Source: a virus
Taxonomy: Duplodnaviria; Heunggongvirae; Uroviricota; Caudoviricetes
Length of the DNA stretch: 64,000 nucleotides
Virus record (IMG/VR): IMGVR_UViG_2537561946_000006
Direction: 5' to 3' (one strand)
Of this stretch, positions 48,001 through 51,000 are shown one piece after another. Within the stretch, counting starts at the first letter, position 1, and each line of letters starts with the position of its first letter. Position numbers: made by a program.

Positions 48001-51000
48001 GCACTGGCTTGCCAAGCCGCAAACACCTGTCCCGGCTCATCTCCCAGTTCAGGCGATGGCGGCGGTTTTCCATCCCGTCTACCGCCTCCATTATTTTTTC
48101 TGTTGTTATGTTAGAGAGAATGGTTTCTCTGAAGTGCAACATCCAGAACGATATAATGCTCTTGTCATCATCAATGGACTTCTTATCCGATTTCTCACGC
48201 AGCCACCGTATGCAGGCTTCCTTGAATAGCTTTTTCGGTGATTCCCCGAGATTTTTTACTCTCCACGCTTCTGCTTTCAGACGATCGTGAAATTCTTGCG
48301 CTTGCCTTTTGTCCGATATTTTAAGTGAGCGTCTAACTCTTGATCCATCTGGCGCGACGAAATCGCAGTGCCACGTGCCACCGCGTAGTTTGATTGACAT
48401 GCTTTAACCTCCTGCACATCAACCGCATTCACCGCGCTATTGTGTCTTACAGACTTAAGCGCCGCAATGCAGTCTGACTTGCAAATGCGATATGGGCTTT
48501 TAGGTTTATCTGGATTTATCTTTGCGGCCTGAAGTCGTCCACTTCGTATCCACTGCGTGATAGTGTCTTTGTCTATGTAGTGGCACACTGAATTTGGCCA
48601 CCTGAACAGAGGTGATATGCTCACCTCAGAACAACACAGGTGCTCCAATGAAAAAAAGAAATTTCAGCGCAGAGTTTAAACGCGAATCCGCTCAACTGGT
48701 TGTTGACCAGAACTACACGGTGGCAGATGCCGCCAAAGCTATGGATATCGGCCTTTTCACAATGACAAGATGGGTCAAACAACTGCGTGATGAGCGTCAG
48801 GGCAAAACACCAAAAGCCTCTCCGATAACACCAGAACAAATCGAAATACGTGAGCTGAGGAAAAAGCTACAACGCATTGAAATGGAGAATGAAATATTAA
48901 AAAAGGCTACCGCGCTCTTGATGTCAGACTCCCTGAACAGTTCTCGATAATCGGGAAACTCAGAGCGCATTATCCTGTGGTCACACTCTGCCATGTGTTC
49001 GGGGTTCATCGCAGCAGCTACAGATACTGGAAAAACCGTCCTGAAAAACCAGACGGCAGACGGGCTGTATTACGCAGTCAGGTACTTGAGTTGCATAACA
49101 TCAGCCATGGTTCTGCCGGGGCAAGAAGCATCGCCACAATGGCAACCCTGATAGGCTTCAGAATGGGGCGCTGGCTTGCCGGCAGGCTCATGAAAGAACT
49201 GGGACTGGTCAGTTGCCAGCAGCCTGCGCACCGTTATAAACGAGGTGGTCGTGAACATGTCACTATCCCGAATCACCTTGGGCGGCAGTTCGCAGTGACA
49301 GAGCCAAATCAGGTATGGTGCGGCGACGTGACGTACATCTGGACGGGGAAACGTTGGGCATACCTTGCCGTTGTTCTCGACCTGTTTGCAAGGAAACCGG
49401 TAGGTTGGGCAATGTCGTTCTCTCCGGACAGCAGACTGACTATCAAAGCGCTGAAAATGGCCTGGGAAATCCGCAGTAAACCAGCCGGGGTAATGTTCCA
49501 CAGCGATCAGGGCAGCCACTATACAAGCAGGCAGTTCCGGCAGTTACTGTGGCGTTACCAGATCAAACAGAGTCTGAGTCGACGAGGAAATTGCTGGGAT
49601 AACAGCCCGATGGAGCGCTTCTTCAGGAGTCTGAAAAACGAGTGGATACCGGTGACGGGTTACATGAACTTCAGCGATGCTGCCCATGAAATAACGGACT
49701 ATATCGTTGGGTATTACAACGCGCTCAGGCCGCACGAATATAACGGTGGGTTGCCACCAAATGAATCGGAAAACCGATACTGGAAAAACTCTAAAGCGGT
49801 GGCCAGTTTTTGTTGACCACTACACTACCTTCAGATACGATGCTGCCTCTTCACGAGTGAAGATTTCTTCTTCCACCTGGAATCTCCATTTATTGAGTTG
49901 GTATTATTGCGGTAGGTCTGGATATCATTGAGCAATGAACAGGCCTCATCGAGTGTGAGGCGGTGTTATTTCATGGTTAGTCCTTGCGTAGCTCGCTGAT
50001 TCTTCTGTAAGTCTCTGGTGCTTTGTTTCCGTGTATCTTCATTTCTGACTTCAACAGAGCAACGAGGGAATCCCATTCGTTGAGGATGCCTTTGAATGCC
50101 GGAACGCGCTTTGCAACCTTGTCGAATGAATCTCTGATTTCTGGAATCTGCTCAACAAGTGCAACGCATCGTCTGAAATCGGCTGCGTCATGTGGAGCAC
50201 CGAAGCTATGACCATAGATATTCTTTTTCAGTCCACATGCGATTGAGGCAAGAGTTGCGCTACTGATGCCAACATCGCCAGTCGATTGCCATTTCAAAAC
50301 CTTCATAGCCAAATCTGACATTTCTTGTCTCCAATAAAAAAACCGCCATCAGGCGGCTTGGTGTTCTTTCAGTTCTTCAATTCGAATATTGGTTATGTCT
50401 GCATGTGCTATCTGCGCCCATATTATCCAGTGGTCATAGCAGTCGTTGATGTTCTCTGTTTCGATAACCCTGTTGAATGGCTCTCCATTCCATTCTCCTG
50501 TGACTCGGAAGTGCATTTATCATCTCCATAAAACAAAACTCGCCGTAGCGAGTTCAGATAAAAGAAATCCCCGCGAGGGCGGGGATGTTAAGTCGGTGGG
50601 GGTACAGTATGGATATCGAAAATTATTGCGCGATTTTCATTACTCCCCTGGGAAAACATTATCTGGCAAGCATACGTTGTTGATGCTGTTTCACAACACG
50701 TAAACGTAAGCTGTCATAGGCCCAATTGTAGAACATGGTATATGGTAGAAAGAAAAGGAAGAATCCTATCTCTAGTGTAAAAGCCTGTAACAGACTGACG
50801 CTCAGAATCCAGGACACCATAATGACGCCGATCGCGATAAATCCACTTTCAAAGCCCAAAGCATGGAATGCACGAACTTTTGCAGTTCGTTTTACCTGAT
50901 GAGCAGGCCAGTAGCGATCAAATAGCATGTTATAGATGATATTCCAGATCATTGCAGTTGAAGCCAACAAGATAGTCATCCCGCCCATTTCGAGTATAGT

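Follow-up and report, generated by a model that had tools for sequence, protein, structure and literature searches.

The 64,000-nt stretch of viral DNA analyzed here (IMG/VR record IMGVR_UViG_2537561946_000006, Caudoviricetes; hereafter the window) carries an IS911-like insertion sequence (IS) that has transposed into an excisionase gene (xis). The gene is of the P22 type and belongs to a cryptic lambdoid prophage remnant at thrW of Escherichia coli. We conclude, with a probability of about 0.9, that this transposition deprived the remnant of Xis and most likely of the capacity for self-excision, and that it was a late step in the decay of the element. In the proposed course of events, an active IS911-like element would have transposed into codon 17/18 of xis, duplicating the trinucleotide CTA. 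The insertion would have left an 18-residue N-terminal peptide and separated the rest of the winged-helix/helix-turn-helix (HTH) protein from its start codon and ribosome-binding site, so that no Xis could be made. By analogy with lambda- and P22-type systems, the remnant would then most likely be unable to excise by its own means. Such 'grounding' would be a late step of prophage decay and not the cause of the defectiveness, because the remnant was already non-viable before the IS arrived. A lambdoid prophage carrying effector genes (prophage A) would later have entered thrW ahead of the remnant, which would have produced the tandem junction at 47180.

The IS occupies 48576–49824 (plus strand, 1249 bp) and is flanked by copies of CTA at 48573–48575 and 49825–49827, in agreement with the direct repeats described in the original prediction for this DNA, which had been made from the sequence alone. 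In silico removal of 48576–49827 joined the minus-strand segment 49876..49828 to 48575..48277 and gave one open reading frame (ORF) of 348 nt, comprising 115 codons plus the stop. The ORF starts with GTG at 49876–49874, and a Shine-Dalgarno motif (GGAG; 49884–49887, minus strand) was read 7 nt upstream of it. Excision followed by translation had been proposed as a check, and it thus returned the single GTG-start ORF of ~116 codons with a ribosome-binding site that had been expected. The xis genes of the phages mEp213 and HK75 are annotated with the same GTG start.

The restored ORF is not a chance product, because the exact 115-aa protein is on record without interruption in other public E. 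coli assemblies (P0016; 13 contigs) and gap-free empty sites exist. The excised DNA (47180–52200 without the IS) was 99.95–99.97% identical, without gaps, to three empty loci (L007, L008, and L009); L007 and L008 each differed from it at a single position in 3769 nt, and all three loci contain a single TAG/CTA at the junction. Moreover, sequences 100% identical to each of the two IS junctions were found in independent complete E. coli genomes (the left one in 7 of 5426, the right one in 5), which rules out a misassembly. Taken alone, a repeat of 3 bp would arise by chance in 1 of 64 cases, and this would speak for an assembly artefact or for a fortuitous repeat next to an IS brought in by recombination instead of transposition. 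Such an origin is already refuted, and has practically no probability left, given exact empty sites with one CTA and identical junctions in 5–7 independent complete genomes. These results confirmed that the insertion is a genuine transposition with duplication of CTA; misassembly and chance are excluded.

The consequence for the gene is read from the two remaining pieces. The 5' segment (49825–49876, minus strand) consists of the GTG and codons 2–17 and now reads VEEEIFTREEAASYLKVV up to a TAG stop within the IS end, encoding 18 aa only. The 3' segment (48277–48575, minus strand) consists of the last 2 bases of codon 17, codons 18–115, and the stop; it includes the left CTA and has no credible start or ribosome-binding site of its own. 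Because the 5' piece yields an 18-aa peptide and the 3' part is cut off from start and ribosome-binding site, xis, interrupted after codon 17, is not expressible and is thus knocked out. The insertion had been called in-frame, which has to be corrected: the IS and the duplicated triplet together add 1249 + 3 = 1252 bp, which is not divisible by 3, and the TAG in the IS end stops translation. A 123-aa ORF with a TTG start (48277–48648), which runs from the IS end into the 3' part of xis, was considered as a rescued fusion Xis and rejected, because it has no Shine-Dalgarno sequence and the first 17 residues, including HTH helix 1, are missing; its TTG, which lies within the IS, is the sole in-frame start found upstream of the 3' piece. 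The split xis was left unannotated by the RefSeq pipelines. A promoter and terminator scan of 47100–50400 gave fewer promoter-like matches than shuffled sequences. The single sigma-70-like match (49813–49841, plus strand) is a hybrid of TTGACC, located in the right IS end, and TACGAT, located in the adjacent xis DNA; its orientation is outward, away from int and antisense to the xis 5' fragment, and was judged uninformative.

The assignment of the interrupted gene to the P22-type excisionases is supported by several comparisons. The original prediction was staked on a similarity of the reconstructed protein to some excisionase, and this similarity was found along its entire length. The restored protein agreed at 111 of 115 positions (96%) with the Xis annotated in mEp213 and HK75, both viable temperate phages, and shared its start and length; it also matched the PHROG 2907 excisionase profile with E = 2e-51 (residues 1–115 to profile positions 2–117 of 117). 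The scores were 35.4 bits for Pfam HTH_17 (cut-off 27) and 33 bits for TIGR01764 'excise', the excisionase family DNA-binding model (cut-off 28.8). An excisionase-type HTH had been predicted correctly, whereas its labeling as AlpA-type did not hold, since the domain is of the HTH_17/'excise' type and not of the Pfam AlpA family. The identity to P22 Xis was 41% over 112 aa (E = 1e-20), and SfV and SfI Xis gave similar results. The gene overlaps int by 124 nt (48277–48400), and the same 124-nt overlap is present in mEp213, HK75, and P22. The Xis proteins of the P22 and SfX/mEp213/HK75 types, the recombination directionality factors of P22-like int-xis modules targeting thrW, resemble the restored protein in their length of 115–116 aa, the N-terminal HTH_17/'excise' winged helix, and their collinear homology, and the modules of these phages resemble the present one in having xis directly upstream of int with an overlap and the thrW 3' end as att core. 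The present gene differs from the P22/mEp213/HK75-type genes in being split by an IS after codon 17 and in residing in a non-viable remnant instead of a phage.

That the restored ORF encodes, instead of a recombination directionality factor, a transcriptional regulator whose HTH is MerR/BldC/AlpA-like is very improbable. Its RefSeq name is merely 'helix-turn-helix domain-containing protein', and there are weak matches to the BldC and MerR-like families, both of which would fit a regulator; the full-length match to the excisionase PHROG, the homology to P22 Xis from end to end, and the canonical overlap position with int are at odds with it. A sequence search of the PDB for a solved P22-type Xis gave marginal matches only, namely the BldC-like 6ama (E ~0.1) and mycobacteriophage Gp37 (4j2n; E ~1). 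In addition, DNA alignment with P22 xis and mEp213 revealed, immediately before the start of the working xis, what remains of the 5' end of another xis of the P22 type (49909–49975, minus strand; ~22 codons, ~70 nt). Its first codons are ATG AAA TAA, with an early TAA, and it contains a 1-nt insertion; LTLDEACSLL and ISRPTA are readable in two frames. The relic is shared with mEp213, is not part of the functional gene, and marks a mosaic recombination joint of the int-xis module.

The inserted element has the features of the IS3 family. It contains orfA (48648–48950, plus strand; 100 aa, Pfam HTH_Tnp_1) and an orfB frame with rve integrase-core (DDE) domains, which overlaps orfA in the −1 frame and ends at 49816; the −1 frameshift motif A AAA AAG (48899–48905) links the orfA frame to that of orfB. 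Its termini, which were read and cut by a script, are imperfect inverted repeats, each beginning TGTAGTGG, and the outer ends are TG...CA. Together with the 3-bp duplication, the overlap of orfA and orfB at A AAA AAG, the HTH and rve domains, and these ends place it in the IS3 family, and the fused OrfAB matched the NCBIfam model NF033516 (IS3 family transposase) at 5.8e-112. IS3-family elements transpose by a copy-out/paste-in mechanism. In SC434-type genomes, the copy occupying this site was 100% identical to the present IS, and copies with 99.8% identity were found in unrelated contexts. Because of these copies and of the PGAP annotation of the SC434 copy as an intact programmed-frameshift transposase, the element is regarded as live and active.

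The name of the element required some care. IS911 belongs to the IS3 group of the IS3 family and was first described in Shigella dysenteriae, and in ISfinder practice isoforms share about >95% aa or >90% nt identity. The copy in NCTC9064 that PGAP names 'IS3-like element IS911 family transposase' is equal in length to the present IS and aligns with it gap-free at 90.4% nt and 92.5% OrfAB aa identity, and the nucleotide identity to the IS911A fragments of K-12 was 89–90%. Common to IS911 and the present element are a length of ~1.25 kb, TG...CA ends, a 3-bp duplication, the A AAA AAG −1 frameshift, a DDE (rve) transposase, and gap-free collinearity, whereas the termini read TGAAGTGG in the named NCTC9064 copy and TGTAGTGG in the element described here. 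The name given to this variant by NCBI/PGAP is plain 'IS3 family'. The coordinates and the IS911-type affiliation that had been predicted were thus correct, and the exact name IS911 calls for qualification, at ~90% nt identity to the named copies. Judged by these identities, strict identity with IS911 is borderline, and 'IS911-like' is the accurate and safer name.

In contrast to xis, int is intact. The gene (47240–48400, minus strand) encodes a full-length tyrosine integrase of 386 aa (Pfam Phage_integrase, 3e-34), which is 97% identical to and collinear with the Int proteins of mEp213 and HK75, and the catalytic positions R213/R214, K240, H312, R315, W338, and Y347 lie in invariant columns. 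Comparison with thrW-int loci located the att core, the 3'-terminal 46 nt of the tRNA-Thr gene thrW, at 47180–47225 (plus strand). The core is followed by the int-proximal (P') arm shared with mEp213/HK75, and the homology to the thrW-int locus L007 ends exactly at 47180; ARAGORN found no complete tRNA at 47180–47225. The whole structure of the remnant is visible in two complete sister genomes, which are 99.2–99.4% identical over the remnant stretch. Their order is proA-thrW-int-(IS)-...-ybcO-IS3-P arm-core-int fragment-yagU-ykgJ-ecp, with ~18 kb from core to core. The far end of the remnant keeps a second core copy there, preceded by a P arm of ~170 bp that hardly differs from its counterpart in mEp213/HK75 attP. 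In the sister genomes, int and the two att sites (attL and attR) look competent, and of the excision components only xis is visibly absent. For lambda- and P22-type tyrosine integrases, excisive recombination requires a directionality factor. Since Int is intact and the att sites of the sister genomes are intact, while excisive attL × attR recombination needs such a factor, self-excision would be lost.

The element around xis had been described as a prophage that lost xis function while keeping an intact int. The interrupted xis and the full-length int bear this out; however, xis is not the sole loss, and by its gene content the 'prophage' is a ~18-kb cryptic lambdoid remnant at thrW that is non-viable as a phage. 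To the right of xis follow ORF114 (as in phage 434/HK022), genes for a PACE/BTP efflux protein, a LysR regulator, and a dATP/dGTP pyrophosphohydrolase, and exo, bet, and gam. After gam come a fragment of P, on the other strand, and then the genes for an inverse autotransporter and an alpha/beta hydrolase, ybcN-ninE-ybcO, and a second IS3-family element. The 5'-truncated fragment of the replication gene P directly after gam (56831–57289) matches profile positions 46–162 only, and together with the autotransporter (57539–61090; 1183 aa) and the hydrolase (61127–62170) it occupies the place of the immunity and replication region (56831–62170). No repressor, N, cro, O, Q, lysis, head, or tail gene was present in the remnant, as judged by the gene content of the window stretch and the two sister genomes, and only nin-region genes precede the second IS, which is not the content of a functional (inducible) lambdoid prophage. 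This second, different IS3-family element starts at 63617 and is cut off by the end of the window at 64000. It is 67% identical to the IS911-like copy over the first 374 bp of the latter; in the sister genomes it lies directly against the P arm of the attR of the remnant.

Since L007, in which xis is uninterrupted, already has the P fragment beside gam, followed by the autotransporter, the loss of the immunity region, of O, of most of P, and of every late gene preceded the IS insertion. A later stage is found in Z1323HEC0355 (NZ_CP148363.1, IS at 877335–878583). Its left IS junction is the same, and the right end of the IS abuts the equivalent of window position 50536, so that a 709-bp IS-adjacent deletion has removed the xis 5' fragment, ORF114, and most of the next small ORF. 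All three alleles are present in public genomes, and they can be arranged as a decay series from intact xis to xis::IS to the IS-adjacent deletion. Within the remnant, the PACE/BTP chlorhexidine-efflux-type membrane protein (50659–51117, minus strand) and the LysR regulator (51221–52105, plus strand) form a divergent pair (50659–52105), bacterial-type cargo amid the phage ea/exo-bet genes of the early-left region; like the autotransporter and the hydrolase, the pair stands where phage functions would be expected.

Several points weigh against the conclusion that the insertion cost the remnant its self-excision. The loss is deduced from homology, and P22 Xis is only 41% identical to the mEp213/HK75/SfX-like Xis of this element. 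The window ends at 64000 inside the second IS3-family element, and the attR of the remnant in this genome lies beyond it. A related Xis might be supplied in trans from another place in the genome, and the left end of prophage A is outside the window. Furthermore, the remnant has no pL, N, or cII, so that Int may not be expressed and the lesion in xis would then have no phenotype.

The last point leads to a tentative alternative that deserves to be taken seriously, although we do not favor it: xis::IS may be a neutral hit in dead DNA and without functional effect, Int being unexpressed without pL/cII or attR being damaged in this genome. The disappearance of the whole immunity/early regulatory region speaks for this alternative, and the further 709-bp deletion beside the IS in Z1323HEC0355, the position of attR outside the window, and the reported over-representation of IS elements in prophage DNA (PMC5359411) fit it as well. 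It accords less well with a full-length Int that retains its catalytic residues and with a sister-genome attR P arm nearly identical to that of viable phages, because of which excision competence was apparently preserved until the insertion. Complementation in trans by the Xis of another prophage, for example the tandem neighbor at the same thrW core, is unlikely. The two elements share the 46-bp core, and thrW is used by several phage types; yet the P arm of prophage A next to the core is unrelated in sequence to the mEp213/HK75-type P arm and without TTGTGCCGTATTTGTG-type repeats, which points to another Int/Xis specificity; in addition, the 64-kb window contained no further homologue of xis (the int and xis of prophage A lie outside it). 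We also consider it unlikely that the knock-out was a selected 'grounding' of cargo, with Int and both att sites functional, which would have turned the remnant into an integration-only landing pad that captures thrW phages in tandem; the captures cited for this are that of the nle-effector prophage in the present DNA and, in strain SC434, that of another phage.

A comparable event is known from the Stx2c prophage of E. coli O157 isolate 9000, in which IS629 is inserted in the excisionase and 'IS entrapment' was proposed (Shaaban et al., 2016, PMC5359411). The two cases are alike in that an IS3-family element breaks xis of a lambdoid prophage, which there was proposed to lock the prophage in the chromosome. 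They differ in the IS, the xis family, and the att site, and the target there was an Stx-converting prophage, whereas here it is a degraded remnant. The loss of excision functions as a route to 'grounded' prophages has been reviewed (PMC6379469), and a literature search on IS911 insertion in a prophage excisionase returned nothing relevant. The IS knock-out of xis is an already published kind of event, and the present case is real but ordinary prophage decay. Its value lies mainly in annotation, as one clean, datable step in the decay of the thrW remnant, and current understanding is unchanged. The cargo of the remnant (the inverse-autotransporter adhesin, the PACE transporter with its LysR regulator, and the esterase) is probably locked in the chromosome. 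With regard to strain biology, the nle-effector prophage is part of a tandem array and is bounded on the right by a hybrid att site.

Left of 47180 there is neither thrW nor an mEp213-type P arm, but the right end of prophage A. Its right arm (window 1–47179) contains replication/nin, lysis, head, and tail genes, J, and the tail fibre gene. On this evidence the window comprises two elements in tandem at thrW, and the junction at 47180 is a hybrid P(A)-core-P'(B) site. The tandem junction was covered by none of the complete E. coli genomes searched. In strain CD45, the same right end of prophage A abuts the chromosomal yagP/pao genes. Since the xis::IS remnant lies directly beside thrW in one sister genome (L005) and behind a different phage in another (L004), prophage A most probably integrated after the IS insertion.

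The type III secretion system effector cargo of prophage A includes nleB2 (41167–42147), nleF (43755–44324), and pieces of nleC and nleH, and an AraC regulator is encoded at 45673–46425. Genes for tRNA-Met (CAT; 11544–11619) and tRNA-Arg (TCT; 11720–11796) lie upstream of the lysis and late genes. Between the AraC gene and the att core, an orphan C-terminal fragment of an rve-type (IS3-family-like) transposase was found (46467–46832, minus strand), and this fragment also occurs in strain CD45 (L003, 14968–15177).

The loci compared show that phages of several types use thrW, a classical integration hot spot. In E. coli K-12, the same hot spot (proA-thrW ... yagU-ykgJ-ecp) is occupied by the cryptic prophage CP4-6, which is likewise flanked by direct copies of the thrW 3' core and contains many IS elements, including IS911A; it differs from the present remnant in its gene content, which is unrelated, and in its integrase (intF, at the far end). 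Of the present element type, the K-12 thrW locus keeps only a short P'-arm-like relic. A stretch of ~70 nt resembling the mEp213/HK75-type P' arm, including a TGTGCCGTATTTGTGCC repeat, was observed in K-12 (L006, 37256–37325) and in CD45 (L003, 15462–15529). In both loci it lies downstream of the right-hand copy of the thrW core, which in K-12 is the attR of CP4-6, and it is the fossil trace of a former tandem occupant that belonged to the same element type as the present remnant.

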